Shown: positions 2,228-64,000, counted from the first letter of the stretch. The stretch is 64,000 bases of DNA from Rhodospirillaceae bacterium (GCA_027490975.1 JAIXXA010000132.1:17253-81252), one strand, 5' to 3'. The notes: generated by a model not told the origin, from the sequence alone. Program-made: numbers and translations.

Positions 2228-3339
2228 AAAACTCGCCAGATCGCGCCGCAGCCGACGCCGCGGCGCTGGCACGATTCAGCCGCGCCGTTTTGCGCGCCGC
2301 CGGCGCCGATTCCGCAACGGCCGCTGCGGCCACCCGCGCGATGATGCATGCCTCGAGCCTGGGGATCGACAGCCACGGCATCCGGCTGCTCGGCCACTAC
2401 GTTCGCGCGATTGACGGCGGCCGCGTGAAAGGGCGGCCGCGACTGCGCTTTGCGCGGAACAAGGGTGCCGTGGCGATGCTCGACGCCGGACACGCGCACG
2501 GCGCGCTCGCCGCCTACCGCGCGATGGCGCGCGCGACGGCAATGGCCGCACGCCAAGGGATCGGCGCGGTCGGGATCGCCAATTCGTCCCACTTCGGCGC
2601 CGCAGGCGCCTACGCGCTGGCCGCCGCCGAAGAAGGATTCATCGGAGTCGCCGTCTGCAATTCCGATGCGTTTGTGCGTCTGCACGGCGGTGCCGCGCGC
2701 TTCCACGGCACCAACCCGATCGCCGCCGCGTGCCCTGTGGCCGGTGCGCGCCCGTGGCTGCTCGATATGGCGACCAGCGCCATTCCCTACAATCGGGTCC
2801 AGCTCTACCGCAGCCTCGGACGCGCGCTCCCTGCCGGAACCGCATCCGATGCGCGCGGCGCCGATACGCGCGCGCCGGAGGAAGCCGCGATGCTGGCGCC
2901 GCTGGGTGCCGCTTTCGGCTTCAAAGGGGCCGGGCTTGCGGGCCTCGTCGAGATTCTAAGCGCCGTCCTCACCGGCATGCGCCTGAGCTACGAAATCCTG
3001 CCGATGGGCGGCCCGGACATGCGCACGCCCAGACGCATGGGCGCGTTCGTCCTCGCGATCGATCCGCGCGCGTTCCTGCCGGGCGAGGCTTTCGCCAAAC
3101 GCATGGCGGTCTATCTGCGCACGCTGCGTCGGTCGCCGGCCGGATCCGGCGATGCGGCGATGGCGCCGGGCGACCGCGAATGGCGGCAGGCCGCCTTGCG
3201 CGCAGCCGCCGGCATTCCGATCGATCCGGAAACGCGCAAGGAATTCGCCCGTCTTTCCGAAACCTACGACGTGCCGGCGCCGTCGCTGCGAGAGTCGCCG
3301 AAAACCGGAAACATCCGCAAAGAAAGGAATGGGAGATGA
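2224..3339 (+). CDS. Ldh2-family (malate/L-lactate dehydrogenase family 2) NAD(P)-dependent oxidoreductase
   Basis: 371 aa with HGIRLLGHYV...GIANSSHFGAAGAY...LLDMATSAIPYNRV motifs typical of PF02615 (ureidoglycolate, sulfolactate and 2,3-diketogulonate dehydrogenases). ATGA overlap with dctP. Confidence 0.85.
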   Translation: MKNSPDRAAADAAALARFSRAVLRAAGADSATAAAATRAMMHASSLGIDSHGIRLLGHYVRAIDGGRVKGRPRLRFARNKGAVAMLDAGHAHGALAAYRAMARATAMAARQGIGAVGIANSSHFGAAGAYALAAAEEGFIGVAVCNSDAFVRLHGGAARFHGTNPIAAACPVAGARPWLLDMATSAIPYNRVQLYRSLGRALPAGTASDARGADTRAPEEAAMLAPLGAAFGFKGAGLAGLVEILSAVLTGMRLSYEILPMGGPDMRTPRRMGAFVLAIDPRAFLPGEAFAKRMAVYLRTLRRSPAGSGDAAMAPGDREWRQAALRAAAGIPIDPETRKEFARLSETYDVPAPSLRESPKTGNIRKERNGR

Positions 3340-4358
3340 ACCGTCTTGCCAAACTCGCGACTCTTGCATGCGTCGCGGTGGCTGTCGGCGCGCTCGCGCC
3401 GACGCGCGTCCACGCCGCCGAGCCCGCGCAACTGCTCGCACAGGCCAGTCCGACCGTGACGCTGCGCTTCAGCCACGTGCTGGGGCCCCGCGAGCCCTTC
3501 CACGAGGGCTTCCTCGCATGGGCGCGCGCGGTCGAACAGCGCACCAACGGCGGCCTCAAGATGGAGGTCTTCCACAGCTCGTCGCTGGGCCGCGAAGAAG
3601 ACATCATCGAACAGCTGCGCCAGGGCGCCAATCTCGGGCAGAACACGGACGCGGCCCGTTTGGGCAACTACGTGCCCCAGATCGCCGTCGTCAACGGCCC
3701 GTATTTCGCAGCAACGGCCGCCGACATCGAGCGCGCCGCCCGCACGCCGAGCCTCCAGCGCTGGCAGGCCGAGCTGGCCGAACGCCACGGCCTCAAGGTC
3801 GTATGCTTCAATTGGGTGCAAGGCGCACGGCACTTCTTCACGAACAAACCGATCCGCCGGCCCGAAGATCTGCGCGGGCAGCGTGTCCGCACGCCGCCGG
3901 CGCCGATCTGGCAGGAATCCGTCCGCGCGCTCGGCGCCGCGCCCGTCGCGATGGCCTTCAGCGAAATGTACCCGGCACTGCAGCAGCGCGCGATCGACGG
4001 GGTCGAACTCGTCTACAACAACATCCCGGCAGGCCGCTTCCACGAAGTTCTGCGCTACGCCAACGAGTCGCGGCACATTCTTCTGGCCAATTTCCAGGTT
4101 GTCGGCACCCGCTTCTTCAATTCGCTGCCGCCGGCCTACCAGACAGCACTGGTCGAAGAGTGCGAACGCGCAGGTGCCGCCACTTCGCGGCGCATCCAGG
4201 AACTCGAGGGCGAAGTCAAAGCCGATCTGCGACGCCGCGGCATGACGATCGTCGAAGACGTCGACCATGCGGCGTTCCAAGAGGCCGGCAAGCGCGCCTA
4301 CCAAGCGCTCAACCTGACAGAGGCCAAAGCCGCGATCGACCGCGAAATGGGCCGCTGA
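3336..4358 (+). CDS. dctP: TRAP transporter substrate-binding protein (DctP family)
   Basis: ATG at 3336 with upstream GGGAGA, followed by a signal peptide (MNRLAKLATLACVAVAVGALAPTRVHA) and a DctP-like body. Lies inside the longer track ORF 2730..4358. Confidence 0.9.
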   Translation: MNRLAKLATLACVAVAVGALAPTRVHAAEPAQLLAQASPTVTLRFSHVLGPREPFHEGFLAWARAVEQRTNGGLKMEVFHSSSLGREEDIIEQLRQGANLGQNTDAARLGNYVPQIAVVNGPYFAATAADIERAARTPSLQRWQAELAERHGLKVVCFNWVQGARHFFTNKPIRRPEDLRGQRVRTPPAPIWQESVRALGAAPVAMAFSEMYPALQQRAIDGVELVYNNIPAGRFHEVLRYANESRHILLANFQVVGTRFFNSLPPAYQTALVEECERAGAATSRRIQELEGEVKADLRRRGMTIVEDVDHAAFQEAGKRAYQALNLTEAKAAIDREMGR

Positions 4359-4404
4359 CGCGGCCCGCAATGCGCGCCTCGAGCCTTCAAACCGGGAGAC
4401 GGCC

Positions 4405-39419: not shown

Positions 39420-40532
39420 ATGGATTGCATTTCCGACTGGCTGGTCGCCGAGGGTCCGCACGTGGCAGACATGGGCGCGCTGCTGAGCGGCTTGGCCGAG
39501 CGGCTGCTGGCGGCCGAGATCCCCGTGGCGCGCATGGCAACCATGATCGAAACGCTGCATCCGCGCTTCATCGGCGCGATGCGCGTCTGGGAACCGAACG
39601 GCGACGTGAAGCTGCGCCGCGCCACGTTCGACGACCCGGTCATAACGGCGGCCCCCAAACGCTTCACGATCGACGAGCTGCAGGAAACCGGCGATTGGGT
39701 CGAATTCAAGCTCGACGATCCGCGCATCGACGCCTACGACCTGCTGCCGCGCCTGGCACAGGAAGGCCACACGCATTACCTGCTGATGCCGCTCCGGTTC
39801 CGCGAAGGCCCGCTGCAGGGGATGTCGTTTTCCACCAAACAGGCGGGCGGCTTCACGGCCGCGCAGAGCCGTGCCATCCGCACGCTGCAGCCGAGCCTGG
39901 CCTTGACCGCCAACGTGATCGCCACGCACACGATGTGGCGCGAGGTGCTGAAGGCCTATGTCGGCGAAGTGCCGGGCGATTTGATTCTGCAAGGGGCGAT
40001 ACGGCGGGCGGACGTGCGCCGCGTCCAAGCCGCTTTGATCATGACCGACATGCGCGGCTTCACGCGGCTTGCCAATGCGAGCACGCCCGAGGCGACGGTC
40101 GCCGCCCTCAACGCCTATCTCGACAATGTGGTGCCCGCGATCGCGGCGGCGGGCGGCGAAATCCTCAAATTCATCGGCGACGGCGTGCTGGCCACGGTCC
40201 CATTCAACGATGCCGGGAACGCTGCGGCGGCCTGCGCAGCGGCTTTTGCGGCAGCCCAAGCGATTCGCCAGGCCGCCCCCAATGTCGGCATCGCTTTGCA
40301 TGTGGGCGAGGTCGCGTTCGGCAATATCGGGGCGGGCGACCGGCTCGACTTCACGATCATCGGGCGCGACGTCAATCTGCTCGCGCGCATCGAAAAAATC
40401 TGCGGCGAATTCCACGAAGACATCGTGATGTCGCAGGCTTTTGCCGCTTTGTGCGGTGCGCCAGCGCGCCTCGTCACGCGCTTCACGCCCAAAGGCTTCG
40501 ACGGCGAAGAGGCCGTGTTCGCACCGGCCTAA
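39420..40532 (+). CDS. Class III adenylate/guanylate cyclase with N-terminal sensory domain of unknown type
   Basis: C-terminal CHD domain (IMTDMRGFTRL...KFIGDGVLA...GEVAFGNIGAGDRLDFTIIGRDVNLLARIE). The N-terminal roughly 190 aa are unassigned. Confidence 0.85.
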   Translation: MDCISDWLVAEGPHVADMGALLSGLAERLLAAEIPVARMATMIETLHPRFIGAMRVWEPNGDVKLRRATFDDPVITAAPKRFTIDELQETGDWVEFKLDDPRIDAYDLLPRLAQEGHTHYLLMPLRFREGPLQGMSFSTKQAGGFTAAQSRAIRTLQPSLALTANVIATHTMWREVLKAYVGEVPGDLILQGAIRRADVRRVQAALIMTDMRGFTRLANASTPEATVAALNAYLDNVVPAIAAAGGEILKFIGDGVLATVPFNDAGNAAAACAAAFAAAQAIRQAAPNVGIALHVGEVAFGNIGAGDRLDFTIIGRDVNLLARIEKICGEFHEDIVMSQAFAALCGAPARLVTRFTPKGFDGEEAVFAPA

Positions 40533-51801: not shown

Positions 51802-53517
51802 ATGACTCGCGACCGCGCTTGGTTGGGCGTTCTCCTCTCGGCTCCGGCGACGGCATGGCTTGCCGTCGCCTTCGCCGCCCCATTGGCCGTCGTTGCCCTG
51901 CTGTCGCTGCAGGAAACGGCCGATCCTTTTGCGGCCCTGTCGCTCGTTCCGTCCTTCAAGCAATTCGCCGACATTCTGGGCGACCGCTATTTCCTCGGCA
52001 TCATCGCCGAAACGATCCTGCTGGGCTTGGGCGTGACATTGGGTGCGGTTGTGCTCGGCTATCCGCTGGCGATGTGGCTGGCGGGCTTGCCGCAGCGCTG
52101 GCGCTCGGTTGCGTTTGCGGTGGTGCTGATCCCGCTTCTCACCAACGTGGTCGTGCGCTCGCTCGGCATCGTGCTGCTGCTCGCACCCGACGGCCTCTTC
52201 AACGGTTTCTTGCGGCCTTTCGGGCTCGCGCGCCCGCAAGGCTATGTATTCACGCATTTCGCCGTCGCGATCGCGTTGATCCAGGTGTTTTTGCCGTTCA
52301 TGGTGCTGTCGCTCTACGATTCGCTTGCCAATCTCGACGGCCGCTTCAAAGAGGCCGCGGCCTCGCTGGGCGCGTCGCGCGCGCGCATCTTTTTTGCGGT
52401 GACCCTGCCCTTGTCGCTGCAGGGCCTGCGCGCAGGCGTTACCATCGTGTTCCTGCTGTCGTCGACTGCCTACGTGTCGGCGACGATCCTGGGCGGCAAG
52501 AAGGTGTGGACCACCGGCATGATCGTCTGGCAGGAGGCGCTGCAGAATCTGAACGCGCCGACGGCTGCTGCCCTTGCGATGATCATGCTGGCATGGGGCA
52601 TCGGTTTTGCGTTTCTGGCCGAGCGCATCGTGCGCCGCTTCTCGCCGTGGCTTGCCCCCGACAGGCCGCGACAAGCGCCGATCGCGCTGCCCGCCGCGTT
52701 CGAGCGCGTGCTGGTGCGCGCAGCCGATTTCTGCGGCCAAGCGCTGTGGCACCTGCTGCTGGCACTCGGCATTCTTCTGCTGCTGTTCCCGCTGATGCTG
52801 GTGGCCGTGCAGTCCTTCAACGACGTGCCGCAGGCAAGCGTGGCGGGTTTCCGGGCCTTTACGTTCAAATGGTATGCGGCCGTGTTCGAGGTGGGCGCCT
52901 ATTTGCGCGCCTTCGAGATCTCGGCGCAGCTTGCCGCCGCCTCGGTCGCCTGCGCGCTCGCTTTGGCGCTGCCGGCCGCCTTCGTGCTCGTGCGCTTCGG
53001 CTATCCCGGACGCGGCGCGGTGCAGGCTTTCTGGATGCTACCGCTCGCCCTGCCGCATGTCGCGATCGGCGTGGGCATGCTGCGGCTGCTGCAATGGTAC
53101 GTCGCGATCCCGCCTTTCATAGGGCTGCTGCTCGTGCATGTGGTGCTGATCGTGCCGTTTGCGATCTCGCTGCTGCGCAGCTCGGTTCTGCAGCTCGACA
53201 CGGCCCTCGAGCAGGCGGCGGCGTCGCTGGGTGCCAATCCGGTGCGCGTGTTTTTCCTGATCGTGCTGCCCAATCTCGCGCCCGGCCTCGCCGTTGCCGG
53301 CATCATCGGGTTCCTGATTTCGTTCGGCGAGGTGACGGTCACCTCGTTCCTCACCACAGCACGGCTCACCACGCTGCCGGTGCGCATCTATGCCGAGGCG
53401 AGTTTCAGCCTCGAGCCGACCGTGCACGCGGTCTCGACCCTGCTGATTCTGGCGACCGTCGCCCTGCTCGCGATCGTCAATCGCTTCGTAAAGCTCGACC
53501 GCGTCTGGGCAAAATAG
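51802..53517 (+). CDS. Fused two-domain ABC permease (PotB-like + PotC-like in one 571-aa polypeptide)
   Basis: Two consecutive 6-TM permease modules, each with its own EAA loop (EAAASLGASRARIFFAVTLP and EQAAASLGANPVRVFFLIVLP). Start MTRDRAWLG at 51802. The upstream part of the 891-aa track ORF is out of context. Confidence 0.85.
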   Translation: MTRDRAWLGVLLSAPATAWLAVAFAAPLAVVALLSLQETADPFAALSLVPSFKQFADILGDRYFLGIIAETILLGLGVTLGAVVLGYPLAMWLAGLPQRWRSVAFAVVLIPLLTNVVVRSLGIVLLLAPDGLFNGFLRPFGLARPQGYVFTHFAVAIALIQVFLPFMVLSLYDSLANLDGRFKEAAASLGASRARIFFAVTLPLSLQGLRAGVTIVFLLSSTAYVSATILGGKKVWTTGMIVWQEALQNLNAPTAAALAMIMLAWGIGFAFLAERIVRRFSPWLAPDRPRQAPIALPAAFERVLVRAADFCGQALWHLLLALGILLLLFPLMLVAVQSFNDVPQASVAGFRAFTFKWYAAVFEVGAYLRAFEISAQLAAASVACALALALPAAFVLVRFGYPGRGAVQAFWMLPLALPHVAIGVGMLRLLQWYVAIPPFIGLLLVHVVLIVPFAISLLRSSVLQLDTALEQAAASLGANPVRVFFLIVLPNLAPGLAVAGIIGFLISFGEVTVTSFLTTARLTTLPVRIYAEASFSLEPTVHAVSTLLILATVALLAIVNRFVKLDRVWAK

Positions 53518-53588
53518 GGTTAACGAATATCGCTTGCCGGTTTTGGGCGCTGCGCTAGAATGTACGTCTTGCTTTCGGGAGAATTTCG

Positions 53589-53804
53589 ATGGCTTCGAGC
53601 ATCAGCGACAGCGTGCCCGGCGGCACGCCGCAGACCCAGCGCCCGACCGAAACGACGCAGACGGCGCCGTCCAGCGCCCCGCGCGACGGGATCACGCGCC
53701 GCGACACCGTGCCCGCGAGCCAAGAGAGCGTCACGCGCGCCGATGCGCCCCCGCCGCCGCCGGCCGGCACCCAGCGCGGCCAGACGGTCGATATCAGCGT
53801 CTAA
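53589..53804 (+). CDS. Possible small (71 aa) low-complexity S/T/P/Q-rich protein
   Basis: GGGAGA RBS 7 nt upstream of the ATG. Almost every codon ends in G/C, consistent with coding in this genome. No homology recognised, and it could be noncoding. Confidence 0.3.
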   Translation: MASSISDSVPGGTPQTQRPTETTQTAPSSAPRDGITRRDTVPASQESVTRADAPPPPPAGTQRGQTVDISV

Positions 53805-53828
53805 TCGTAGCCGTTCGGCCGCGGCGCT

Positions 53829-55415
53829 TCAGTTCGCCGCGAGCCACACGCCGCCCAAATCCTGACCGAGAAGATGCGACGGCGTGATGTGCCAGCCGCG
53901 CACGTTCGATGCCAGCGGCACAATGCGCGTGAACCAGAATAGCGGCACGGTATAGGCCAGATCGAACGTATGGATCTGGAAGTCGCGCACCAGCGCCTTG
54001 CGCTTGGCGAAATCGGTCTCGCGCTCCTGCGCGTCGAAGATTTCGTCGAGACGCCGGTCGAGATGGCGCGACACGTTGAAACCCGGCACGCGGTCGATTG
54101 AGATGAAGCGCCGCAGCTGGAAATTCGGTTCGTCGGCGAACTCGGTCGTGAAATCGAGCATGACCTGGAACTGGCCCGAGGTGCGGGCCGAGAAATAGGT
54201 CGCCCGCTCGGCCTGGCGCTGCTCGACCGTGACGCCGATCTGGCGCCATTGGTCGATCGCCCACACGGCCACGGTCGGGAAGGGCGGCAGCGACATCGAA
54301 ATGATCTCGAAGCGCAGATTGGGCACGCCCGCCTCCTGCAAGAGGCGGCGCGCTTCGGCGCGATTGCGCGCCATGTCGCGTCCCATGCCGGGGTATGTCG
54401 CAAGTTCGGCTGCCGTCGGCGCATAGGCATAGCCCGGTCGCAGCAGCGAGCCAACCGCACTCACCTGCGACACGCGGGCGAGCGCCTCGACCGAACCCCA
54501 ACGGTCGAGCGCAAGGTTGAGGGCGCGGCGCACGCGCACGTCGTCGAACGGCTTTTGTTCGATATTGAAGGAGAGGATCAGGCCCGAAAGCCAAGACTCT
54601 TCCTGGAAGGCGACGCGCGGGCCCGCCACGCGGGCCTTTTCGGCCGGACTGATGCCGCGGAACTCGGCCATCACCTGCCCGCCTTGGATGGCGTTCAGCA
54701 TTGCAGCGCCGCTCATCGTCACGGCGCGGAAGCCGTCGAGATAGGGCTGGCCCGCACGGAAATAGCCGTCGAAGCGCTTGCCGGTCCAATGCGAGCCGCG
54801 CACGCGTTCGCCGAACACGAACGGGCCCGAGCCCATCGTTTCCTTCTCCGGATAGACCGGATCTTGGGCGAGCTTGGCGGCCGAGTAGATGCAATTGAAC
54901 GGCGCCGCGAGATACGTCATGAACGCGGGATTGGGATTGTTGAGGCGGAAAACGACCGTGTCGGCGCTGGGTGCGTCGATCGCGGCCACGTCGGCGAAAT
55001 GGTCGCGCCGCGCCGAGCGCGCGCCGCCGGTCGGGTTGCGGATGCGCTCGAAGCTCGCTTTGACGTCGGCCGCCGTGAGCGGCGAGCCGTCGTGGAAGCG
55101 CACGGGCTGCGCGATTTTGAAGCTGTAGGTCTTGCCGTCGGGCGACACGGTCCACGACGTGGCGAGATCGCCCTCGATTTCGGGATATTTTGTCGCGTTG
55201 AACCGCACCAGGGTCGAATAATGGGGGGCGAGATGGTGGATGACCGCGAAATTCGTCGCCGCGTGGCAGTCGGTGGTGTCGGGCTCGCCGCCGACCGCAA
55301 AAATCATCTCGCCGCCGCGCCGCGGCGTTTCCTGCGCCGAAGCAGTGCCGAAGCCCGAAATGCCGACGAACGCCAATCCAGCGAGGGCAAGCCCCGCGAC
55401 TGTCCGAAACCACAT
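53829..55415 (-). CDS. ABC transporter substrate-binding protein, family 5 (peptide/nickel/opine type), orphan
   Basis: Start at MWFRTVAGLALAGLAFVGISGFGTASA (signal peptide). SBP_bac_5 body. No permease or ATPase genes adjacent. Confidence 0.85.
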   Translation of the reverse strand: MWFRTVAGLALAGLAFVGISGFGTASAQETPRRGGEMIFAVGGEPDTTDCHAATNFAVIHHLAPHYSTLVRFNATKYPEIEGDLATSWTVSPDGKTYSFKIAQPVRFHDGSPLTAADVKASFERIRNPTGGARSARRDHFADVAAIDAPSADTVVFRLNNPNPAFMTYLAAPFNCIYSAAKLAQDPVYPEKETMGSGPFVFGERVRGSHWTGKRFDGYFRAGQPYLDGFRAVTMSGAAMLNAIQGGQVMAEFRGISPAEKARVAGPRVAFQEESWLSGLILSFNIEQKPFDDVRVRRALNLALDRWGSVEALARVSQVSAVGSLLRPGYAYAPTAAELATYPGMGRDMARNRAEARRLLQEAGVPNLRFEIISMSLPPFPTVAVWAIDQWRQIGVTVEQRQAERATYFSARTSGQFQVMLDFTTEFADEPNFQLRRFISIDRVPGFNVSRHLDRRLDEIFDAQERETDFAKRKALVRDFQIHTFDLAYTVPLFWFTRIVPLASNVRGWHITPSHLLGQDLGGVWLAAN

Positions 55416-55493
55416 GGCCGTTTCTCCCAAAACAACTTTATGAGACACAGCTTATAGGGCAAGCGGGGGCCAGGGCAAGCGGAGGACCGGGCA

Positions 55494-56291
55494 ATGGAAC
55501 AAAGCATTCTGAAACGTCCGGGCGCGGACCTGCACTATTGGAGCTTCGGATCGGGACCGGCTCTCGTTTTTGCGCACGGGCTCGGGGGCAACGCACTGTC
55601 CTGGTGGCAGCAGATCCCATACTTCCAGCGCAGATGGCGCTGCATCACGTTTTCGCATCGCGGCTTCGCACCTTCGACGGTAGCAAGCGGCCTGCCTGAT
55701 CCCGCCGATTACGCGGGCGACCTTGCGGCCCTGGTCGACCATCTCGGTCTCGGCGATGTGGCGATCGTCGCCCAATCGATGGGCGGCTGGGGTGCGGTCG
55801 AATTCGCGCTGCAGGCGCCGAAGCGCGTGCGCGCGATCGTGCTGGCCGCCACGAGCGGAACGTTCGACGCGCGTGCGGCCGATCCAAAGGCTTTTGCGGC
55901 ATGGGAGGTTTGGGCCGCCGCCGAACGCCTGCGCCTCAACGCCGCTTCGATCCATCCGGCGGCAGGCGAAGCCATGGCCCGGGATCGGCCCGACCTCAAA
56001 TTCCTCTACAGCAGCATCGACGCGATGTCGCAGGGGCTCGACAAAGAAGCCCTGCGCAAGCGCCTGTTTGCCGCCCGCGTGCGCCCGCTTGGCGATGCCG
56101 CGCGTTTGCCCATGCCCGTGCTCGTCGCGTGCGGGGAAAAGGACCCGGTCTTCGCCTCGCCCCTGGGGGCTGCGTTTGCTGCCGCTTTCCCGCAAGGCCG
56201 GCATATTGAATTTGCAAAAGCCGGGCATTCGGCCTATTTCGAAATCGCGCCCGAATTCAATCGCCGGATAGAGGCTTTCCTCGCCCCATGA
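55494..56291 (+). CDS. Alpha/beta-fold hydrolase
   Basis: 265 aa. HGLGGN oxyanion region, nucleophile elbow AQSMGG, C-terminal GHSAY (His). Confidence 0.85.
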   Translation: MEQSILKRPGADLHYWSFGSGPALVFAHGLGGNALSWWQQIPYFQRRWRCITFSHRGFAPSTVASGLPDPADYAGDLAALVDHLGLGDVAIVAQSMGGWGAVEFALQAPKRVRAIVLAATSGTFDARAADPKAFAAWEVWAAAERLRLNAASIHPAAGEAMARDRPDLKFLYSSIDAMSQGLDKEALRKRLFAARVRPLGDAARLPMPVLVACGEKDPVFASPLGAAFAAAFPQGRHIEFAKAGHSAYFEIAPEFNRRIEAFLAP

Positions 56292-56989
56292 AAGCGCCGA
56301 TCTTCTACAGCAAACCGGTCCCGCTCGCGGCCGAAATCCACGGCACCAAGCGCTTTCGCGCGATCGCCGATTTCCGCTTCGCGCGCGCGGCCAACGCGGT
56401 TCCGCTTGGGGCCAGCGAAATGGGGATTGCAGCGCGCCACTATCCGCTCGTCTTCGCTGCAACCGAGCCCGGCGGCATTGCCGCGATCCTGGGCGTGCAG
56501 ACGGGCGAAAACCTTTTCGTCGATGCCGACGGCAAATGGGCGCCGGACGTCTACGTACCGGCTTTCGTGCGCCGCTATCCGTTCGCCTTCGCCGAGCAGG
56601 ACGACAAACTGATCTTGTGCATCGACGAAGCGGCGAACGCGCTCGACGACGCAGAAGGGCCGTGGCTGTTCAACGTCGACGGGACCACGACCGGGTTCAC
56701 CGACCAGGTCGTGCAGTTCAACCGCGAATTCCAGATCCAAGCGCGAAGTGCCGCCGAATTTGCGGCTGCCGCCGCCGCCGCGGGCTTGCTCGCCGAAAAC
56801 CGAGCGGAGATCGAAACCCGCAGCGGCAAAAAGATGACGCTCGGCGGGTTCCGCGTGATCGACCGCGCCAAATTCGAAGCGCTGTCCGACGAAACCTTCC
56901 TCGATTGGCGCAAGCGCGGCTGGCTCGACATGGCGGCAGCGCACTTCCTGTCGTTCCATTCCTGGCAGAATCTGATCGCGCGCGCCTGA
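56288..56989 (+). CDS. SapC-family protein
   Basis: 233 aa with ATGA overlap with the hydrolase. NAVPLGASEMGIAARHYPLVF...YVPAFVRRYPFAF matches the SapC family (PF07277). Confidence 0.7.
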   Translation: MKAPIFYSKPVPLAAEIHGTKRFRAIADFRFARAANAVPLGASEMGIAARHYPLVFAATEPGGIAAILGVQTGENLFVDADGKWAPDVYVPAFVRRYPFAFAEQDDKLILCIDEAANALDDAEGPWLFNVDGTTTGFTDQVVQFNREFQIQARSAAEFAAAAAAAGLLAENRAEIETRSGKKMTLGGFRVIDRAKFEALSDETFLDWRKRGWLDMAAAHFLSFHSWQNLIARA

Positions 56990-56992
56990 CGT

Positions 56993-58951
56993 TTACTTCT
57001 CGGCCATGGCGAAGACTTCGCCTGTCTCGCCTTCGCGCAGGCGCTCGAGATGGTATTCGGCAAGCGCATCGTCGGGATAGCGCCGGCACAGATCCTCGAA
57101 CGCCGCGAGTGCTGCCGGATCCGCGCTTTTCATGAGTTCGAACGCGGCCAGATAGAGCGTCGTGTTTTCGTCTGCGGCACGTGCACCGGTCAGCGGTTCG
57201 AACACGTGGATGGGTTCGGACTTGCCTTTGACAATCACGCCGCCGACCTTACGGCAGGGAACTTCGGGCGAGGCGTCGCGCGTCTGCTGCGTGATCAGGA
57301 TGCGCGTGCCGAAATACTTGTTGAGACCTTCGAGGCGGGCGGCCGTGTTCACGGCGTCGCCGAGCGCTTTGTATTCGTAGCGGTCGAGCGAGCCGAAATT
57401 GCCCACGTTCGCTTCGGCCGTGTGCACGCCGATGCGCGTCACGCCGAAATCGACGCCCTTGGCGCGCTCTTCGGCGCGGAAGCGTTCGGAGAACCGGTCG
57501 ATGTCGAGTGCAGCCTGCAAAGCGCGCTTGGCGTGGTCGGGCTGCTCGCGCGGCGCGTTGAACATCGCGTAGATCGCGTCGCCCGTGAATTGGTTGATGG
57601 TGCCGCCGAACTTCCAGATCTCGCGGCAGCCGCCGTCGAGATAGCGGTTCAGGATATCGGCAAGGTGTGCGGCTTCGAGCTTTTCGGACAGGGTCGTGAA
57701 ACCCTGCACGTCGGTGAAGATCAGCGACATCGGCCGGCGGCTTGCCGACAGGTCGAGCTTTTTGGGATCCTTGACGATCTCCTGCAGCAGTTCGCCCGAC
57801 ACGTATTTGCTGAAAACGCCTTGGATGAATTTCTTCTGCTGGCGTTCTGCGCGACCCGACCACGCATCCGACAGCCAAAGCGCAATGCCCAAGGCCACCA
57901 CCGGCTCGATCAGCGGCAGCAGCAGTTGCCTGTCGCGGAACAGATAGAAGGCGCCGACCCACAGCGCGGCGATCGCGACGACGGCCCCGCTCGCGCGCAG
58001 CCAGATCGGCACGCCCGTATTGCCGAGCGCTGCCCCGATCAAGGCGAGCAGCGCCAAGGTCGTAACGAGCGGAACCAGCGCCCGATCCTCGGGCGCAACA
58101 CGGCCCTCGAGCAGCTGGGCCAGAATATGCGCCTGGATCACGATCCCGGCGATGGTGCCCTCCCGCCCTTCGCGGGCGACCGCAAACGGCGTGCGATGGC
58201 GGTCGGTCAGCGACAGATCGGCCCCCAGCAGCACGATCTTGCCGGCGATCCAAGCGTCGGGCAGCACAGGCACGGCATGCGAGGGGAAAATGCGGAAGGA
58301 CGGCGTCTGCGCATCGGGCTGGCCGCGCCACGCGATGATGCGCCGCGTTTCGGGAATCGCCGCCCCAAGCCGCTCGGCAAGGCGCGCGGCGACGTTGGGC
58401 AGGCGCGTGCCGTCGTGGCCTTGGCGCGGCTGGGGCACAAAACGGATCGTGCCGTCGCGAATGTCGGGCTCGATGTCGGCGAGGCCCCGCCATTCGGGCA
58501 CCACGAATTCGTCGAGATAGGCGCGCTGCTCCTCGGTCACGTAGAGCGGGGAGTCGCTGTAGCTGATCGCAAACGGAATCTTGAGGGCGGCCAGGACCGC
58601 GCGCAGTTCGTCGTCTTTGTCTTCTTCGGTTTCCTGGTCGAGCAGCACGTCGAGCAGCAGGGCTTTGGCACCTTTGGCAGCCAGCGCTTCGATCGTCTTC
58701 GCCAGAAACCGACGGTCGATCGGCGAGCGGTACGGAAACGAAGACAGCGTTTCTTCGTTGATGGCGGCCACGACGATGTCGGGATGCTGTGGCTCGGGTG
58801 CCGTCACGGTCGCGATGCGGTAGTCGGTCGTCCAGCGTTCGGCCGTGCCCACGAACGGAAACAGCCGGAAGATACCGAACGCGACCGTCGCGGCCACAAC
58901 CGCAATCGCAACCGAAATGCCGATGCGGCGAAAAACGAGTGCGGCACTCAT
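56993..58951 (-). CDS. CHASE2-sensor class III adenylate/guanylate cyclase
   Basis: N-terminal TM, periplasmic CHASE2-like domain of about 300 aa, three TM helices, then CHD cyclase domain (SLIFTDVQGFTTL...KFGGTINQFTGDAIYAMF...NTAARLE). Start at MSAALVFRR (58951); an alternative ATG lies at 58978. Confidence 0.85.
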   Translation of the reverse strand: MSAALVFRRIGISVAIAVVAATVAFGIFRLFPFVGTAERWTTDYRIATVTAPEPQHPDIVVAAINEETLSSFPYRSPIDRRFLAKTIEALAAKGAKALLLDVLLDQETEEDKDDELRAVLAALKIPFAISYSDSPLYVTEEQRAYLDEFVVPEWRGLADIEPDIRDGTIRFVPQPRQGHDGTRLPNVAARLAERLGAAIPETRRIIAWRGQPDAQTPSFRIFPSHAVPVLPDAWIAGKIVLLGADLSLTDRHRTPFAVAREGREGTIAGIVIQAHILAQLLEGRVAPEDRALVPLVTTLALLALIGAALGNTGVPIWLRASGAVVAIAALWVGAFYLFRDRQLLLPLIEPVVALGIALWLSDAWSGRAERQQKKFIQGVFSKYVSGELLQEIVKDPKKLDLSASRRPMSLIFTDVQGFTTLSEKLEAAHLADILNRYLDGGCREIWKFGGTINQFTGDAIYAMFNAPREQPDHAKRALQAALDIDRFSERFRAEERAKGVDFGVTRIGVHTAEANVGNFGSLDRYEYKALGDAVNTAARLEGLNKYFGTRILITQQTRDASPEVPCRKVGGVIVKGKSEPIHVFEPLTGARAADENTTLYLAAFELMKSADPAALAAFEDLCRRYPDDALAEYHLERLREGETGEVFAMAEK

Positions 58952-58967
58952 GCGCGCCTGGGCGCGC

Positions 58968-59684
58968 TCACGGAGCAACGGCGCGCGCCAGCGCGCGCGC
59001 TTGGTCGTTGCAGCCCTTTTCGATCATCCAAGCCGCCTGGAGCAGCGGATCGCTGAAGCTTGCAGGCATGCGGTGGATGACGACGTTGGCCGCATTGCCG
59101 CCGACGTCGAACACGTAGCCGCGCCCGTCGGCAAGCGGGATGCGTGCGGGCAGGGCAAATCGGTCGCTTTCGGCCGGCCACTGGCCGCGCGCACGCCAGC
59201 TGCGGTCGGCCGGTTCGATCGCGAGCCCCGTCGCCTCGGCAAAACGCGGCCCCCACAGCACGGGCGTCGCGTCGCCCGCAATGCAGCGCGCACCCGAGCG
59301 GCTCACATCGAGCACCCACGGATCGGGCAGTTCGGCCGCGTCGCCGCCCGCGCGCACGACACCGAGTGCGGCCGTGCCGGCGACGCGCTGGTTCATCAGA
59401 TTCTTGAGCGCGTCGCCGACATTGGCGCCGCCCGCCGCCGCCTGCCCCGGGGCGGGCGCTTCTTCGTAAGGGCCGCGCAGCTTCAAAGAGCGCCCGTCGG
59501 CCGCAATCAGCGTAAGGCGCTGGCCGGCGGCAAGCACCAGCACTTTGGTGCCGTCGACCTTGGCGCCGGGGGCAAGTTCGATGCCCCTGGCTTCGACCAC
59601 GACAAGCTCGTTCGCCGTCGCCGCCCCGGCGAGGCCGACGAAAAGCGCGATGGCGGTACAAAACGATCGGGCAAAACGACGCAT
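58968..59684 (-). CDS. Hypothetical periplasmic protein (signal peptide; possibly FecR-like partner of the CHASE2/CHAT module)
   Basis: Start MRRFARSFCTAIALFVGLAGAATA at 59684. The remainder of the 360-aa track ORF is an artefact. Sits between the CHAT and CHASE2-cyclase genes with 10- and 16-nt gaps. Confidence 0.6.
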   Translation of the reverse strand: MRRFARSFCTAIALFVGLAGAATANELVVVEARGIELAPGAKVDGTKVLVLAAGQRLTLIAADGRSLKLRGPYEEAPAPGQAAAGGANVGDALKNLMNQRVAGTAALGVVRAGGDAAELPDPWVLDVSRSGARCIAGDATPVLWGPRFAEATGLAIEPADRSWRARGQWPAESDRFALPARIPLADGRGYVFDVGGNAANVVIHRMPASFSDPLLQAAWMIEKGCNDQARALARAVAP

Positions 59685-59694
59685 AACTGCGAGT

Positions 59695-62600
59695 TTAGCT
59701 TGGATTGCGTGCAGCCGGCAATGGTTCGGCGCTGCGGGCCGCCGCACCGTCGCCCTGAAGCACGAATGCGCCCCAGAAGAACGGATGGGCGCTGGCGGCC
59801 TCGTCGGCCAGCGCCATCTGCGATGCCGCAAGGGCGCGCGCAATGCCGCCGCGCGTATTGCCGCCGAGCCGGTCGAACATGCCCGTGGTGAGCTGCACGG
59901 TCTGCTGCGAGGGCACTTGCCAGTGCGTGACCAGAAGGCCGCGGGCCCCTGCAAAGAAAAACGCTTCCGCCAAACCCGACAGCGATTCGCCGCCAAGCCG
60001 CGCGCCCGAGGCCGCCGTGTTGCAGGCCGAGAGCACGACGAGATCTGCATCCAGGCGCATCGCGGCGATCTCGCTTGCTTCGAGGAGCCCGTCTTCGGCC
60101 GGGTCGGCCACGTCGGCGGCTTGTGCGCTCAGGGCAAGGCCCGGCTGCGCTTGGCAGCGCAATTCGCCGGGCAGCAGCCCGTGCGTGGCGAAATACAGAA
60201 CGCGATAACGCTCGAGCTGCTGGCGGCGCAGATTGGCGGCCGTGGCATTCGCACCCAGCAGCAGCGCGTCTGGCCCGGCATTGAGCGAAGCCGCCACGCG
60301 GCGCACCTCGTCGGCGGTTTCCGGCAAGGGGGCAAGCGCGCGGATCATCGCTGCGGGCACGGCGCCGTCCGAGCGGCACGCGTCGGCAAGCGCACCGAGC
60401 CCGTTGGCAGCGCCGCCGCCTTGCGGTGCGCCGCCAAAATTCGGATTGGCGAGCGCAAAAAACGGCTCGGGGGCGGCCGGGCGAGCCGCCAGCGTGCGAA
60501 GGTTTAGGAAGGCGCGCACGCTCGGCGGGCTTGCGGTCGCAACGCGGCGCGCCAGCCACGCCGTCTGCCGGTAATCGCCCGCCACTGCCGCCTGCGGCGG
60601 CGCTTGCGTCGCCAAGACGGCAAAAGGCAGGCTCGCAAGTGCGCCATTGGCGACGACGAACAATTGATCGACTTCCGCCAGCGCCGCATCGAACGGCCCC
60701 AGCAAAGTGCGGTAAAGCCGGTGCGACAGCGCCACGTCGAACGGGGCCACGTCGCTGCGGCCGCTGATCTCGAAGGCGGCGCGCAGGATGCGCACCTGGT
60801 CGGCGAGCTGCTCTTCGTCGGCCGCCAAGCGAGCGGCCTGGATCCCGTCGCGGCGCACGAGGAATGCAAACGCGCCGTCGGGCCCGGTCAAATAGAAGAC
60901 GAGCGCCTCGCGCGGTCCCAAGGCGGCGCGCAGTTCGTCCGGCGCGACAGGCTGCGGCGAGACGAGGCGCGAGAAGCCGGGGGCGGCAGATTCAATATCG
61001 GCTTCGAGTGCGGCGGCTTTCGCCGTCGCGGCGTTGAGGTCGTCGCGCAGCTTGGCCACGCGTGCGGCATCGCGCAGCGCCGTCGGCTTGCCGAGCTCGC
61101 CGGCAAGATCGAGGCCCAGACGGTCGCGGCTGCGCAGCGCGTCTTCGTGCGCGCCCACGACGGGCGCCAGACGCGCATCGTCGCGCGCGAGGCGCTGGGC
61201 GGTGCGCGCAACGGCGCGCCCGGCCGTGCCGTCGCGCATCAATTGGGCGACCGCGAACATTTCGGCATGCAAGGCCGCGGCTGCCGCCGGATCGCGCTTG
61301 GCTTGCGCATCGGCCGCCTCGAGGAACGGGCGCACTTGAGCGAAGGTCAGCGTGCGCACCGGCACTTGCGCGAGCACGATGCGGAACGCATCGCGGTAGT
61401 TCTCGATCGCGGCTGCATAGCGCCCGTCGCCGCTTTGCTCGCGCGCGAGCGTCATCAGGCTTTGCGCGACCGGCCAGCCGCCGCCGAACACGCGCAAGGT
61501 CTGCTGCGCCGAGGCCGCCAGCAGGCGCTCGGCATTGACGAAATCGCCGCGCGCACCGAGCACTTGCCCGAGCTGCGACAAGGCGCGCGGCTGCCACCAG
61601 GGCGGCAGGCCCGGAATGCTGTCGATGATGCGGCGCGCTTCGAGGGCGGCGGACTCGGCCCCCGCAAGATCGCCGGTTTCGAGCGCCATCGACGAGGCGA
61701 AAAGAAGTGCGTGCGCGAGTTCGGCCTGCAGCACCACGGCGCTGCCGAAAATCGAGCCGCCGCCGCCGGCATCGAGGCTCGCCGGGATGCCGCCGCCCAG
61801 CGTTTCGATCAAGGCGCGCCGCCGCTGGATCGTGTCGCGCGCACTCGCAAGGGCCCGCTCGTACTGGCGCTGGTTGGCGGCATGCAGCGCGAGAAAGGTC
61901 TGCAGGCGCGGATATTCGCCGGGGTCGGGCGAGCGCAAGATCAGCGCTTCGGCACGCTGGAACAACGCATCGGCCTCCTCGAACCGGCCTTGCGCCGATA
62001 CTTCGAGCGCAAGCGAGCCCATCGTCGTCCCCGTGCCCGGATGGTCGGGGCCGAGTGCCGCCGTCTGCAGAGCGAGCGAGCGCCGATAGGCAGCCTCGGC
62101 CCCCGCATTGTTGCCGACGCTGTTGTAGAGCCGCGCAAGCTCGACAAGATCCTGATAGCCGCCGACCGCATCGCCGCTTGCGACCGCCGCGCCGAACGTC
62201 GCCTCGAGATGGCCGCGCAGCGCCGCGACGTCGAACGGCCCCGGTGCGGCATCCCCCAACGACAGGCGCATCGCTTCGACCAAAGCCGGCAAGGCGGCAG
62301 GCTGGCCCTCGGCGACCGCCAGGCGATTGCCCGATACGATCGCCGCCGCAACAAGCGGCCAGCCGCCGTCTTTGAGCGAACAGGCGGCGACCATCAACGT
62401 CGTGTCCGCGCCGACCCATTCGGGCGACTTGCACGCCGCACGCAAGCCGAGCGTGCGGATCGGCGCGCTCGTCTCGAACCCGCGCGTCAGAAACGCCCGG
62501 CGCGCATCGGGCTCTTGCGGCACGTTGCGCAATTCCGCCAGAGCCTGCGCCGAGCCGTAGACGCGCGGGCTGTTGGCGCAGAAAACTTCGCGCAGGTCGG

Positions 62601-62748
62601 GCTGCAGGCGGTTGGGCACTGCCCGGCACGCTTCGCCCGACAAGGCCGTGCCGACCGGCGTTTCGGGGCCTTGCCCCCCGCGCATCGCTTGGCAACCGGC
62701 CAAGGCGGCCGCGAGCACGCAGACCGCGATTTGCGGAAAGAGCCTCAT
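59695..62748 (-). CDS. TPR-repeat CHAT-domain (caspase-like peptidase) lipoprotein
   Basis: Start MRLFPQIAVCVLAAALAGCQ (lipobox LAGC) at 62748. TPR region. C-terminal CHAT domain with His (YFATHG) and Cys (LVVLSACNTAASG) catalytic dyad. Confidence 0.85.
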   Translation of the reverse strand: MRLFPQIAVCVLAAALAGCQAMRGGQGPETPVGTALSGEACRAVPNRLQPDLREVFCANSPRVYGSAQALAELRNVPQEPDARRAFLTRGFETSAPIRTLGLRAACKSPEWVGADTTLMVAACSLKDGGWPLVAAAIVSGNRLAVAEGQPAALPALVEAMRLSLGDAAPGPFDVAALRGHLEATFGAAVASGDAVGGYQDLVELARLYNSVGNNAGAEAAYRRSLALQTAALGPDHPGTGTTMGSLALEVSAQGRFEEADALFQRAEALILRSPDPGEYPRLQTFLALHAANQRQYERALASARDTIQRRRALIETLGGGIPASLDAGGGGSIFGSAVVLQAELAHALLFASSMALETGDLAGAESAALEARRIIDSIPGLPPWWQPRALSQLGQVLGARGDFVNAERLLAASAQQTLRVFGGGWPVAQSLMTLAREQSGDGRYAAAIENYRDAFRIVLAQVPVRTLTFAQVRPFLEAADAQAKRDPAAAAALHAEMFAVAQLMRDGTAGRAVARTAQRLARDDARLAPVVGAHEDALRSRDRLGLDLAGELGKPTALRDAARVAKLRDDLNAATAKAAALEADIESAAPGFSRLVSPQPVAPDELRAALGPREALVFYLTGPDGAFAFLVRRDGIQAARLAADEEQLADQVRILRAAFEISGRSDVAPFDVALSHRLYRTLLGPFDAALAEVDQLFVVANGALASLPFAVLATQAPPQAAVAGDYRQTAWLARRVATASPPSVRAFLNLRTLAARPAAPEPFFALANPNFGGAPQGGGAANGLGALADACRSDGAVPAAMIRALAPLPETADEVRRVAASLNAGPDALLLGANATAANLRRQQLERYRVLYFATHGLLPGELRCQAQPGLALSAQAADVADPAEDGLLEASEIAAMRLDADLVVLSACNTAASGARLGGESLSGLAEAFFFAGARGLLVTHWQVPSQQTVQLTTGMFDRLGGNTRGGIARALAASQMALADEAASAHPFFWGAFVLQGDGAAARSAEPLPAARNPS

Positions 62749-63260
62749 GCGCCGGGAGCCGGCGGCAGGCGCCGGCGCGTGTAGTCGCACAGCATGTTCA
62801 TGAGCGCCTTCATCATCGAATCCTTGAGACCGTACGATTCGACCACGTGCGGCGGCGGCAGCATCATGCGCGCATGCCGGTCGGCGGACGTTTCGTCGAG
62901 CGGCAAACCGGCCTTGGTGCGCGAATCGAACGGCACGGTCGAGCGGCAATACTCCATGAGCGACGTCATCAAGCGCACGATATCGGGCTCAAGCGACATC
63001 ATGCGCTGGGTGAGCTGCTGGCTGTTGACGACGATGCAGACCGTGTCTTCGCCCGCGACCGCCGTCGCCATGCGCAGGCCGCCGTCGATGATCGCCATTT
63101 CGCCGAACAAGGCGCCCGGCCCCAGGCTTGCCACGATGATCGGCGCATCCACCCCTTTTTTGAGGATAAGGACTTTGCCCTTTTCGACCAAAAAAGCTTC
63201 GGCGCCGATTTCGCCTTCCTTGAAGATGATTTTTGCCTTGGCGTAGGTGCGTTTGAACAT
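62745..63260 (-). CDS. Standalone cyclic-nucleotide-binding (cNMP/CAP-effector) domain protein
   Basis: 171 aa. Phosphate-binding cassette FGEMAIIDGGLRMATAVA. No HTH. Stop overlaps the CHAT start (ATGA). Confidence 0.8.
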   Translation of the reverse strand: MFKRTYAKAKIIFKEGEIGAEAFLVEKGKVLILKKGVDAPIIVASLGPGALFGEMAIIDGGLRMATAVAGEDTVCIVVNSQQLTQRMMSLEPDIVRLMTSLMEYCRSTVPFDSRTKAGLPLDETSADRHARMMLPPPHVVESYGLKDSMMKALMNMLCDYTRRRLPPAPGA

Positions 63261-63265
63261 GGCGG

Positions 63266-63967
63266 CTAGAAGTCGCCCTTGCGGATCTGGAACACGTCGG
63301 GATTCTGCGGATCGCGAATGTACGAAACTTGCAGCGTCGGCGGCACGGTCGGGCGCTGGCCTTCGGGGGCTGCCACGCCGGCGAGGGCCGCGATCGTTCG
63401 CCGGCCTTGCGTGTCGTCGCCGCGGAAGACCAGCACGGCCCCGTCGGGCTGGGCCAAATTGACCGCGACCGTGTCGGCTTTGTAGCCCACGGAAACGAGA
63501 TGGGTCTGCAGCATGCGCGCCAGATCGACGGCCGTGGCAGGCGCGAGCTGCGGATTGGCGGCCCCGCCGAAGGTGACGGTCACCTGCACAAGCTGGCGCG
63601 AGCGGAAGCCAATGACGTAGGCGACCTGCGCGGGGCCGCTGCCGGGCAGCAGGTCGGGCACGGTGATCGCCAGAATCTGCGTGCGCTCGACCCCGTTTTC
63701 GACGGTCTCGATCCGGTCGGCGGGAATCGAAAAATCGCGCCGAATGGCTTGGCGCACCTGGTCCGGCGTCATGCCGAACAAGGCCGAGCGGAAGCCGGTC
63801 AGGCGAAATTCAGGCTCGGCCGCGGCGGGTGTTCCCGTCGCAGGCGGCGTTGCCGGGCGATTGGGTGCGGGGGCCTGCGCAAGAACGGCGCCGGCACCAA
63901 ACGCCAGCCCGCAAAACGCGACCAAAACGCCGACAATGGCGCGGATACGCTGAATTTTTCTTCCCAT
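63266..63967 (-). CDS. Hypothetical secreted protein
   Basis: 233 aa. Signal peptide MGRKIQRIRAIVGVLVAFCGLAFGAGAVLA and Pro/Ala/Thr-rich linker. First gene of the minus-strand cluster, 5 nt upstream of the cNMP-binding gene. Confidence 0.6.
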   Translation of the reverse strand: MGRKIQRIRAIVGVLVAFCGLAFGAGAVLAQAPAPNRPATPPATGTPAAAEPEFRLTGFRSALFGMTPDQVRQAIRRDFSIPADRIETVENGVERTQILAITVPDLLPGSGPAQVAYVIGFRSRQLVQVTVTFGGAANPQLAPATAVDLARMLQTHLVSVGYKADTVAVNLAQPDGAVLVFRGDDTQGRRTIAALAGVAAPEGQRPTVPPTLQVSYIRDPQNPDVFQIRKGDF

Positions 63968-64000
63968 TTGCCTACCCCATTTCTACCAAATACCGCCGTT

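Follow-up and report, generated by a model that had tools for sequence, protein, structure and literature searches.

The DNA under study is a stretch of 64,000 nucleotides from a Rhodospirillaceae bacterium (GCA_027490975.1 JAIXXA010000132.1:17253-81252), hereafter the window, and all coordinates are positions in it. Five genes on its minus strand, with gaps of 5, -4, 10 and 16 nt, form an operon encoding a secreted protein (F233), a cyclic nucleotide monophosphate (cNMP)-binding protein, a TPR-CHAT protein, a second secreted protein (F238) and a CHASE2 nucleotide cyclase. An initial annotation had singled out the TPR-CHAT protein as a putative protease placed outside the cytoplasm, in apparent topological conflict with the cytoplasmic cNMP signal expected from its neighbor. 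The organization of the operon suggests that a periplasmic sensor-protease arm feeds the CHASE2 receptor and that the cNMP-binding protein is the downstream reader. In order, the five genes are:

63266..63967, minus strand: F233, first operon gene, a secreted protein of 233 aa with a signal peptide and without a Pfam match
62745..63260, minus strand: cNMP-binding protein of 171 aa, predicted to be cytoplasmic, with a Pfam cNMP_binding match (E 1e-17) and without signal peptide or transmembrane segment
59695..62748, minus strand: putative TPR-CHAT lipoprotein of 1017 aa, from its open reading frame (ORF), start codon, Pfam CHAT and TPR matches, AlphaFold2 (AF2) model and Foldseek search
58968..59684, minus strand: F238, a secreted protein of 238 aa whose family lacks annotation, from its signal peptide, model and family conservation
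56993..58978, minus strand: CHASE2 class III nucleotide cyclase, likely starting at ATG 58951 (652 aa), with Pfam CHASE2 and Guanylate_cyc matches

The CHAT gene runs from an ATG at 62748 to a stop codon at 59697..59695. Its ATG overlaps the stop codon of the upstream cNMP-binding gene (ATGA), and the identical 4-nt overlap is found at the orthologous loci L002, L003 and L006 (loci numbered in this way are homologous gene neighborhoods elsewhere). We assigned the start to ATG 62748 because this overlap is kept in orthologs, the next in-frame Met (M22) is not conserved among them, and longer starts fall inside the upstream gene. The upstream candidates TTG 62949 (from a mechanical ORF list) and GTG 62790 were rejected for the latter reason, and downstream starts because they would delete a conserved lipobox that precedes Met22. 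Thus, the 1017-aa TPR-CHAT frame originally called was borne out by its start and stop codons and Pfam domains, and the true start further downstream for which that call had allowed was not. Spurious long ORFs abound on the opposite strand and in other frames across 52000..64000 (G+C about 66-71%), including one of 726 aa (60604..62784, plus strand) inside the CHAT gene; all are composition artefacts.

The CHAT protein carries the following features:

62692..62748, minus strand: lipoprotein signal peptide, aa 1-19, with lipobox LAGC, Cys19 codon 62694..62692 and Gln at +2
62305..62661, minus strand: N-terminal beta-rich domain, aa 30-148, with conserved C41, C57, C106 and C123 and without a Pfam family
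60949..62301, minus strand: TPR or helical-repeat solenoid, aa 150-600, from Pfam TPR_12/TPR_10 matches, kinesin light chain TPR matches in the PDB and an all-helical model
59749..60816, minus strand: CHAT caspase-fold domain, aa 645-1000 (Pfam 674-1000), with the His856 codon at 60183..60181, the Cys909 codon at 60024..60022 and the extra cysteines Cys791 and Cys865

The Pfam CHAT profile (PF12770) matched aa 674-1000 from position 3 to 289 of its 289 (E 2e-52, 178.8 bits against a cut-off of 24), and TPR_12/TPR_10 matches lie around aa 200-270. Searching PDB sequences with the single protein sequence returned TPR proteins only, the kinesin light chain TPRs among them. In the AF2 model (mean predicted local distance difference test (pLDDT) 83.9; predicted template modeling score 0.80), the signal helix is followed by a disordered tether of ~10 residues (18-26, pLDDT below 50), the N-terminal domain (30-148), the helical solenoid (150-600), a small beta unit (614-641) and the alpha/beta CHAT domain (645-1000). 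The N-terminal domain had no Pfam match even at E<=10 and none in NCBIfam or PADLOC. The closest relatives of the protein are encoded in metagenome-assembled genomes of Magnetospirillum sp. (94% identity) and Telmatospirillum sp. (91%), identities that place the organism within the Rhodospirillales.

The amino terminus of the CHAT protein (MRLFPQIAVCVLAAALAGCQ) has an Arg at position 2, an uncharged hydrophobic core and the lipobox L16-A17-G18-C19, with Gln at +2. Read as M-R-LFPQIAVCVLAAA-LAG-C19, it combines a basic n-region, an uncharged h-region and a lipobox whose Cys is within the range of a PROSITE-style pattern that we coded for this analysis ([LVI][ASTVI][GAS]C, with the Cys at position 15-35). 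The canonical lipobox of the initial annotation is therefore real, and its Cys is kept in 90% of 50 aligned orthologs, to ~33% identity. Between 94% and ~33% identity the rest of the signal peptide drifts, yet it remains hydrophobic. All 37 full-length family members from species-representative genomes have a hydrophobic N-terminus, about 20-22 of them with a lipobox and about 15-17 with a signal peptidase I-type peptide. Further, a crude predictor classed 110 of the best 120 TPR-CHAT homologs as export-type (53 with a lipobox and 57 with another hydrophobic N-terminus) and 10 as neither. These patterns make export of the CHAT protein from the cytoplasm very probable and a lipid anchor at Cys19 probable, with lipidation and the anchoring membrane both predictions. 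Because about 40% of the full-length members carry an ordinary signal peptide in place of the lipobox (e.g., ...AGAARA/EP), the lipid anchor appears to be a clade-specific version of a periplasmic location, and action outside the cytoplasm is the general trait predicted for the family. Of the outer-leaflet or periplasmic lipoprotein first proposed, the export thus stands; placement in the outer leaflet is more than sequence can decide.

The cysteine content of the CHAT protein is consistent with this location. Setting aside Cys19, the catalytic Cys and a poorly conserved Cys10 of the signal peptide, the cysteines of the protein number exactly six (C41, C57, C106, C123, C791 and C865), all 98-100% conserved; C41, C57, C106 and C123 are invariant in a 29-sequence alignment, 98% conserved in the 50 orthologs and located on neighboring beta-strands of the AF2 model. 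As three neighboring pairs, the six conserved cysteines would fit disulfides in the oxidizing periplasm. The same evidence bears on a very different explanation, in which the signal peptide is mis-called or non-functional and the CHAT protein is a cytoplasmic effector regulated directly by the cNMP-binding protein. The two genes are translationally coupled by the ATGA overlap, and nucleotide-activated caspase-like effectors of the cytoplasm do exist elsewhere, in CBASS and type III CRISPR systems. A CHAT-SAVED effector is also mentioned in the description of DdvA, a periplasmic TPR-CHAT protein (PMC11506125). However, a lipobox or signal peptide is present in essentially all members of the family, no downstream start is conserved, the cysteine pairs are conserved, F238 and F233 are secreted, and the CHASE2 domain is predicted to be periplasmic. 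Moreover, the cNMP gene follows the cyclase gene in some other loci, and in others a Crp/Fnr regulator or a channel replaces it. We therefore regard a cytoplasmic effector as extremely improbable and close to refuted by sequence.

The CHAT domain contains the motifs YFATH856G and LVVLSAC909NTAASG, each of which (His-Gly and Ala-Cys) closes a beta-strand in the AF2 model. H856 and C909 are 100% conserved in the 50 orthologs and invariant in the 29-sequence alignment, which reaches 28% identity. A CHAT-domain profile, but not a single-sequence search, reached DdvA and Csx29 among PDB sequences and aligned LVVLSAC909 with LVVLAAC907 of DdvA and VILGAC627 of Sb-Csx29; from the Craspase literature, we take C627 to be the catalytic Cys of the latter. 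C907 is the dyad cysteine of DdvA (PMC11506125). When the model of the protein was compared with PDB structures using Foldseek, DdvA ranked first (E 1e-12), followed by Csx29 and separase (E 1e-10 to 1e-8; the top matches together span 1e-12 to 4e-8). By model and fold comparison, then, a caspase-hemoglobinase fold is joined to a TPR/helical solenoid, and by alignment Cys909 is at the catalytic position of the CHAT family. The placement of His856, which lies in strand 848-858 and 53 residues before Cys909 (the dyad spacing is 45 in DdvA), draws on its invariance, the H-G motif and its place in the fold; it is less direct than that of Cys909 because the local structure alignments reached the Cys region only and ended short of the His. 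The early claim of an intact dyad agrees with these results for both residues, and the alignment proposed to verify it placed the Cys at the catalytic position and left the His to its invariance within the H-G motif. The CHAT protein is thus a predicted cysteine protease with putative proteolytic activity.

Comparison with the solved relatives shows what the predicted protease shares with each of them. DdvA was described in 2024 as a periplasmic TPR-CHAT protein, and the proposal is that its proteolysis converts a protein signal in the periplasm into a response in the cytoplasm (PMC11506125). It is the best Foldseek match, with the same TPR-CHAT architecture, a His-Cys dyad and C907 aligned to C909, yet sequence identity is about 15%. 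DdvA is fused to a transmembrane helix and a cytoplasmic zinc anti-sigma domain and acts via a sigma factor of the extracytoplasmic function (ECF) type and RseP, whereas the protein described here is a predicted free lipoprotein (soluble and periplasmic in relatives), without an anti-sigma domain or a nearby ECF sigma gene, and its transducer would be a separate CHASE2 cyclase. No anti-sigma or sigma-70_r2/r4 Pfam match was found in the operon, and the N-terminus of the CHAT protein is a 19-residue lipoprotein signal peptide; assignment as a DdvA-type anti-sigma factor was accordingly rejected. Csx29 (of the type III-E Craspase) and separase also share the TPR-CHAT architecture and fold and an aligned catalytic Cys. 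Both are cytoplasmic or nuclear, Csx29 being activated by the RNA-guided Cas7-11 complex and separase by securin degradation; in contrast, the protein here is marked by its export signal, its conserved pairs of cysteines and an N-terminal domain unique to it. As neither the operon nor its flanks contain cas genes and an export signal is present, membership in type III-E Craspase was also rejected.

DdvA also lends weight to a reading in which the TPR-CHAT protein is a pseudo-protease that serves the CHASE2 domain or an outer-membrane TpsB transporter, without catalysis, as a periplasmic adaptor or a partner for ligand binding, with a structural or binding role for the dyad. DdvA keeps the dyad in an incomplete active site that has no demonstrated activity (PMC11506125), and a large TPR solenoid is a typical protein-binding scaffold. 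Against this, H856, C909 and the clan-CD motifs around them (a hydrophobic block plus H-G, and a hydrophobic block plus A-C) are invariant to 28% identity, and the protein matches the Pfam CHAT profile end to end, whereas DdvA lacks three helices of the CHAT active site. A scaffold without catalysis therefore seems quite improbable to us.

Two genes downstream of CHAT, the cyclase provides the link between the periplasm and the cytoplasm. Its start is likely ATG 58951 rather than TTG 58978 because ortholog alignments begin at residues 10-17 of the TTG-start ORF. Pfam matches place CHASE2 at residues 32-314 and Guanylate_cyc at 416-589, and hydropathy and charge indicate transmembrane segments at 19-37, 300-318, about 325-347 and 352-370 after a basic N-terminus. 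This is the order of a CHASE2 receptor: a first transmembrane segment, a CHASE2 domain of about 260 aa, three more transmembrane segments and then the output domain. The predicted topology has the N-terminus inside, the CHASE2 sensor in the periplasm and the catalytic domain in the cytoplasm. The best PDB relative is the catalytic domain of CyaB, an adenylate cyclase of Pseudomonas aeruginosa (E 4e-30), and 21 of 30 related CHAT-linked CHASE2 cyclases have the adenylate-type K...T pair of CyaB at the substrate-specifying positions. The window and its closest loci (L002, L003, L006, L010 and L011; hereafter the window clade) have a Q...K pair instead (about Q454 and K528 from ATG 58951, in GTINQFTGDA and YEYKALGDAVN), and the nucleotide specificity of their cyclases may be changed or non-canonical. 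A second ORF with a class III cyclase domain and a K...T pair, without CHASE2, lies 19 kb from the operon (39420..40532, plus strand).

The predicted topology of the receptor removes the conflict between a cytoplasmic cNMP signal and a periplasmic protease. With the CHASE2 sensor in the same compartment as CHAT, F238 and F233, and the catalytic domain in the same compartment as the cNMP-binding protein, the cNMP signal need not reach the protease. One of the ways out offered with the original conflict, that the cNMP protein is not the direct regulator of the protease, proved right, the CHASE2 receptor being what links the two compartments. The first interpretation as a whole is partly supported; it had missed the CHASE2 cyclase, F238 and the two-partner-secretion (TPS) context described below. 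The cNMP-binding protein, whose orthologs in L002 and L003 are 65-75% identical, contains no toxic effector domain (TIR, transmembrane or nuclease) recognizable by Pfam, NCBIfam or PADLOC. The cNMP reader also differs among relatives, where it can be a stand-alone protein, an MscS-type channel (MS_channel_2nd plus cNMP_binding; L004 13661-15091) or a Crp/Fnr regulator (Sphingobium, L093 14005-14643).

Between the protease and the receptor genes lies F238, for which we found no Pfam (E<=10), NCBIfam or PADLOC match. All 78 homologs retrieved with a word index are named 'hypothetical' and lack a Pfam domain, and an exhaustive profile search recovered 1718 cluster representatives of the family (1204 at E<=1e-10), nearly all of 220-270 aa. 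The F238 model (pLDDT 83) has a pair of helices at its C-terminus and two beta-sandwich domains, between which the linker is poorly ordered (residues 107-113, pLDDT below 50); it had no significant fold match among PDB structures. Across 141 representatives, C134 and C225 are conserved at 100% and 99%, respectively. The otherwise variable linker includes a [LVI]-G-x-x-R motif (59354..59365, minus strand; G108 97% and R111 99% in the same representatives) that coincides with the stretch of low pLDDT. Given its invariant Arg, the flexible inter-domain linker and a gene placed beside that of a clan-CD protease, G108-x-x-R111 is a natural candidate for a site of cleavage or of docking. Separase, metacaspases and gingipain R all cleave after Arg or Lys. 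The possibility that F233, F238 and the CHAT N-terminal domain are cryptic TPS domains or related to each other was rejected, as hhalign probabilities were below 1%.

The protease, F238 and receptor genes have been kept together over long evolutionary distances. To describe co-occurrence, we used 37 full-length family loci from representative genomes, in which the counts are lower bounds because several contigs are short and our home-made profiles are less sensitive than Pfam (the CHASE2 profile missed a divergent CHASE2 protein that Pfam detected in L008); a second hidden Markov model iteration for CHASE2, F238 and TPS neighbors changed them little. F238 is present in at least 23 of the 37 loci and the CHASE2 cyclase in at least 22, nearly always immediately downstream and on the same strand; TpsB and/or TpsA genes occur in at least 23 and a cNMP-binding gene in at least 16. 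The triad of CHAT, F238 and CHASE2 recurs across Proteobacteria, usually adjoining TPS genes (TpsB with or without a giant TpsA), and in L091 it is kept with 4-nt gene overlaps. Its members diverge in parallel, as shown by Niveispirillum lacus and a metagenomic relative (about 40% identity for CHAT, 39-43% for F238 and 41-48% for the cyclase). In L092 (positions 1-4400; GCA_030830345.1, JAURNE010000182.1), the C-terminus of a CHAT protein (family profile E 8e-151) is followed by F238 and then by a CHASE2-PAS-HisKA-HATPase histidine kinase. This variant links the protease/F238 pair to the CHASE2 sensor rather than to cNMP chemistry.

Complete operons that include the TPS genes are found in two cultured strains. 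In Niveispirillum cyanobacteriorum TH16, the operon encodes TpsB, TpsA (2937 aa, with a TPS domain and nine MBG_2 repeats), CHAT, F238 and the CHASE2 cyclase; the RefSeq names in Sphingobium herbicidovorans MH read Crp/Fnr regulator, CHAT, CHASE2, hypothetical (F238), ShlB/FhaC/HecB and a hypothetical protein of 2092 aa. Loci of the window clade share their gene order and the flanking SapC, hydrolase and solute-binding protein genes. F233 orthologs are limited to this clade (L002, L003, L006, L010 and L011) and F233 itself had no match in Pfam (E<=10), NCBIfam or PADLOC. Just upstream of F233, all five loci, including the 94%-identical L006, carry a divergently transcribed TpsB gene (ShlB/POTRA_2), annotated as follows in three of them:

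L006 6950-8647: TpsB, divergent from the operon
L002 4990-6672: TpsB, divergent from the operon
L003 323-1993: TpsB, divergent from the operon

No TpsB (POTRA_2 plus ShlB barrel) was found inside the window, which ends 33 nt past the F233 start codon. As the syntenic loci carry TpsB at that point, the window's own copy very probably lies just beyond its end. TpsA is present in more distant family members, and gene content indicates that the window clade is one that has kept an orphan TpsB and lost TpsA.

The association with TPS genes supports the main rival of the signaling model, according to which the CHAT lipoprotein is an exoprotein-maturation protease that processes or releases the TPS exoprotein (or F233 in the window clade), with the CHASE2 cyclase merely co-regulated or acting as a feedback sensor. 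In many loci (L004, L005, L015, L046, L047, L087 and L090), a giant TpsA gene ends directly at the CHAT start codon or overlaps with it, and one sub-branch of the family has TPS and CHAT genes and no CHASE2 gene. In E. coli, lipoproteins without Asp at +2 are sorted to the outer membrane, and by that rule a lipid anchor of this kind would put the enzyme near the outer-membrane TpsB. On the other hand, the window clade retains CHAT, F238 and the cyclase without TpsA, and the CHAT-F238-CHASE2 order is the more tightly conserved and persists with a histidine-kinase output. Exoprotein maturation on its own thus seems unlikely, and it is not mutually exclusive with signaling. Proteases of this general kind are known. 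LapD and LapG control LapA and the TpsA adhesin CdrA in Pseudomonas, and SphB1 and CtpA process FhaB in Bordetella. From this background, the likeness is to a periplasmic or lipid-anchored protease beside a TPS or type I adhesin, with an inner-membrane cyclic-nucleotide protein that has a periplasmic domain. Neither protease is a CHAT protein, however, for LapG is a C93 (DUF920) protease and SphB1 a subtilisin autotransporter. LapD is a cyclic-di-GMP receptor that signals inside-out, whereas the output domain of the present CHASE2 protein, a cyclase or kinase, generates a signal, implying outside-in flow.

[quoted passage not shown] Both systems pair an alphaproteobacterial CHASE2 cyclase with a dedicated cNMP-binding reader and small periplasmic proteins encoded beside the cyclase. 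Yet no CHAT protease has been described in that cascade, NsrA (roughly 1200 aa) is not known to be a ShlB-type TpsB, and the cyclase neighbors are a FecR-domain protein and SMc02178 rather than F238. In our searches 162 Sinorhizobium records matched the cyclase, and tblastn with F238 matched no Sinorhizobium replicon. The secreted TPR protein SMb20495, of the Clr regulon, was considered as a CHAT homolog and rejected for lack of detectable homology; that check matched 126 plasmid records, and their ten most frequent genera (unlisted genera with <=3 records each) did not include Sinorhizobium.

Taking the export signal, fold and dyad, operon, conserved triad, receptor topology and cNMP-binding domain computed here together, we give somewhat better than even chances to a model in which the CHASE2 receptor takes its input from a periplasmic sensor-protease arm and the resulting signal is read downstream by the cNMP-binding protein, and lower ones to its details. 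The CHAT protease would act in the periplasm together with F238, either on the receptor's CHASE2 domain or next to it. A protein event in the envelope, tied in most relatives to the TpsA exoprotein and the outer-membrane TpsB, would then alter the state of the CHASE2 domain. The likeliest such event would be a CHAT-mediated cleavage, for which the G-x-x-R linker of F238 is the best candidate site. The cytoplasmic cyclase domain would in turn produce a cyclic nucleotide, to be read by the co-encoded 171-aa cNMP-binding protein or, in relatives, by the Crp/Fnr regulator or cNMP-gated MscS-type channel. It is more likely that the protease side feeds the cyclase than the reverse. A bolder version, which we offer as speculation and consider doubtful, is that CHASE2 here reads periplasmic caspase-like proteolysis and not a small molecule. 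The state of a TPS exoprotein or transporter (e.g., upon surface or cell contact) would trigger CHAT to cleave F238 at its G-x-x-R linker, and the cleaved or released fragment would switch the receptor on, making the system a contact-to-cAMP (or kinase) relay.

Several observations weigh against the signaling model. Eight of the 37 family loci have neither CHASE2 nor TPS genes in the fetched flanks, and the sub-branch with TPS and CHAT genes has no receptor gene. No TPS-domain gene is present in the window or within 10 kb in its clade, so a TPS-dependent trigger cannot work alike here. The G-x-x-R motif of F238 could be a binding site and not a cleavage site. The periplasmic proteins encoded beside cyaD1 in S. 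meliloti are dispensable for signal perception, which calls for caution about F238 as an input. The alignment to solved CHAT structures covers the Cys region and is not direct for the His, and DdvA itself, although its dyad is intact, is of unproven activity and has an incomplete active site (PMC11506125). Finally, protease activity, substrate, outside-in direction and nucleotide identity are all features that we infer.

The pairing of a class III-type cyclase with a cNMP-binding protein also recalls Pycsar, and with it an anti-phage function, in which a DdvA-like TPR-CHAT protein would sense a foreign periplasmic protein in the envelope and a Pycsar-like cyclase would activate a cNMP-binding effector. 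The best structural match, DdvA, controls a CBASS/CRISPR defense island; PycC models of PADLOC hit the cyclase domain (best E 5.5e-24); there is a weak match between the cNMP protein and the cNMP-binding part of PycTIR effectors; and the Q...K substrate-specifying residues of the window clade are unusual. However, PycC models are themselves class III cyclase homologs and are matched by any such cyclase, and the one here is a CHASE2 membrane receptor whose best solved relative is CyaB (4e-30) and whose relatives mostly have adenylate-type residues (21 of 30). The cNMP protein lacks a TIR, transmembrane or nuclease effector domain, and CHAT, F238 and F233 match no PADLOC model. Membership in Pycsar was rejected on the cyclase and cNMP protein evidence. 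Further, the operon is flanked by SapC-family, alpha/beta-hydrolase and SBP_bac_5 solute-binding genes (55494..56989, plus strand, and 53829..55448, minus strand). Because their order is the same in L006 and largely so in L002, the operon belongs to a syntenic stretch of chromosome that is conserved, rather than to a mobile island; such housekeeping transporters, SapC and hydrolase do not make a defense island. We thus give an anti-phage role only a slim chance. A scan of the operon for promoters and terminators was uninformative, with sites no more numerous than in shuffled sequence.

To our knowledge, CHASE2 domains have had no known ligand since their definition in 2003, almost all that is known of bacterial CHAT and caspase-like proteases concerns cytoplasmic effectors, and neither a signal nor a substrate is known for DdvA, the only periplasmic case studied. 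The locus gives a handle on two questions, namely the input of CHASE2 sensors and the substrates of caspase-like proteases in the periplasm. By itself, an extracytoplasmic CHAT protease has a precedent in DdvA, described in 2024 (PMC11506125). The searchable literature, which excludes subscription journals, contained no description of a free lipoprotein or secreted TPR-CHAT family, of an F238 partner, or of their coupling to CHASE2 and TPS. A cyanobacterial caspase-CHASE2 fusion protein reported in a genome survey offers an independent hint of a functional link. The locus belongs to a larger unannotated group, as an export-type N-terminus is seen in 110 of the 120 nearest TPR-CHAT homologs and F238, with about 1,700 cluster representatives, has no Pfam entry. 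It also links two-partner secretion, the route of adhesins and contact-dependent exoproteins, to second-messenger signaling; if true, a contact-to-cAMP (or kinase) relay would be shared by over a thousand sequence clusters from environmental Proteobacteria. The genetics suggest a testable circuit of protease, adaptor, CHASE2 receptor, cyclic nucleotide and reader, and experiments are feasible in the cultured carriers N. cyanobacteriorum TH16 and S. herbicidovorans MH.

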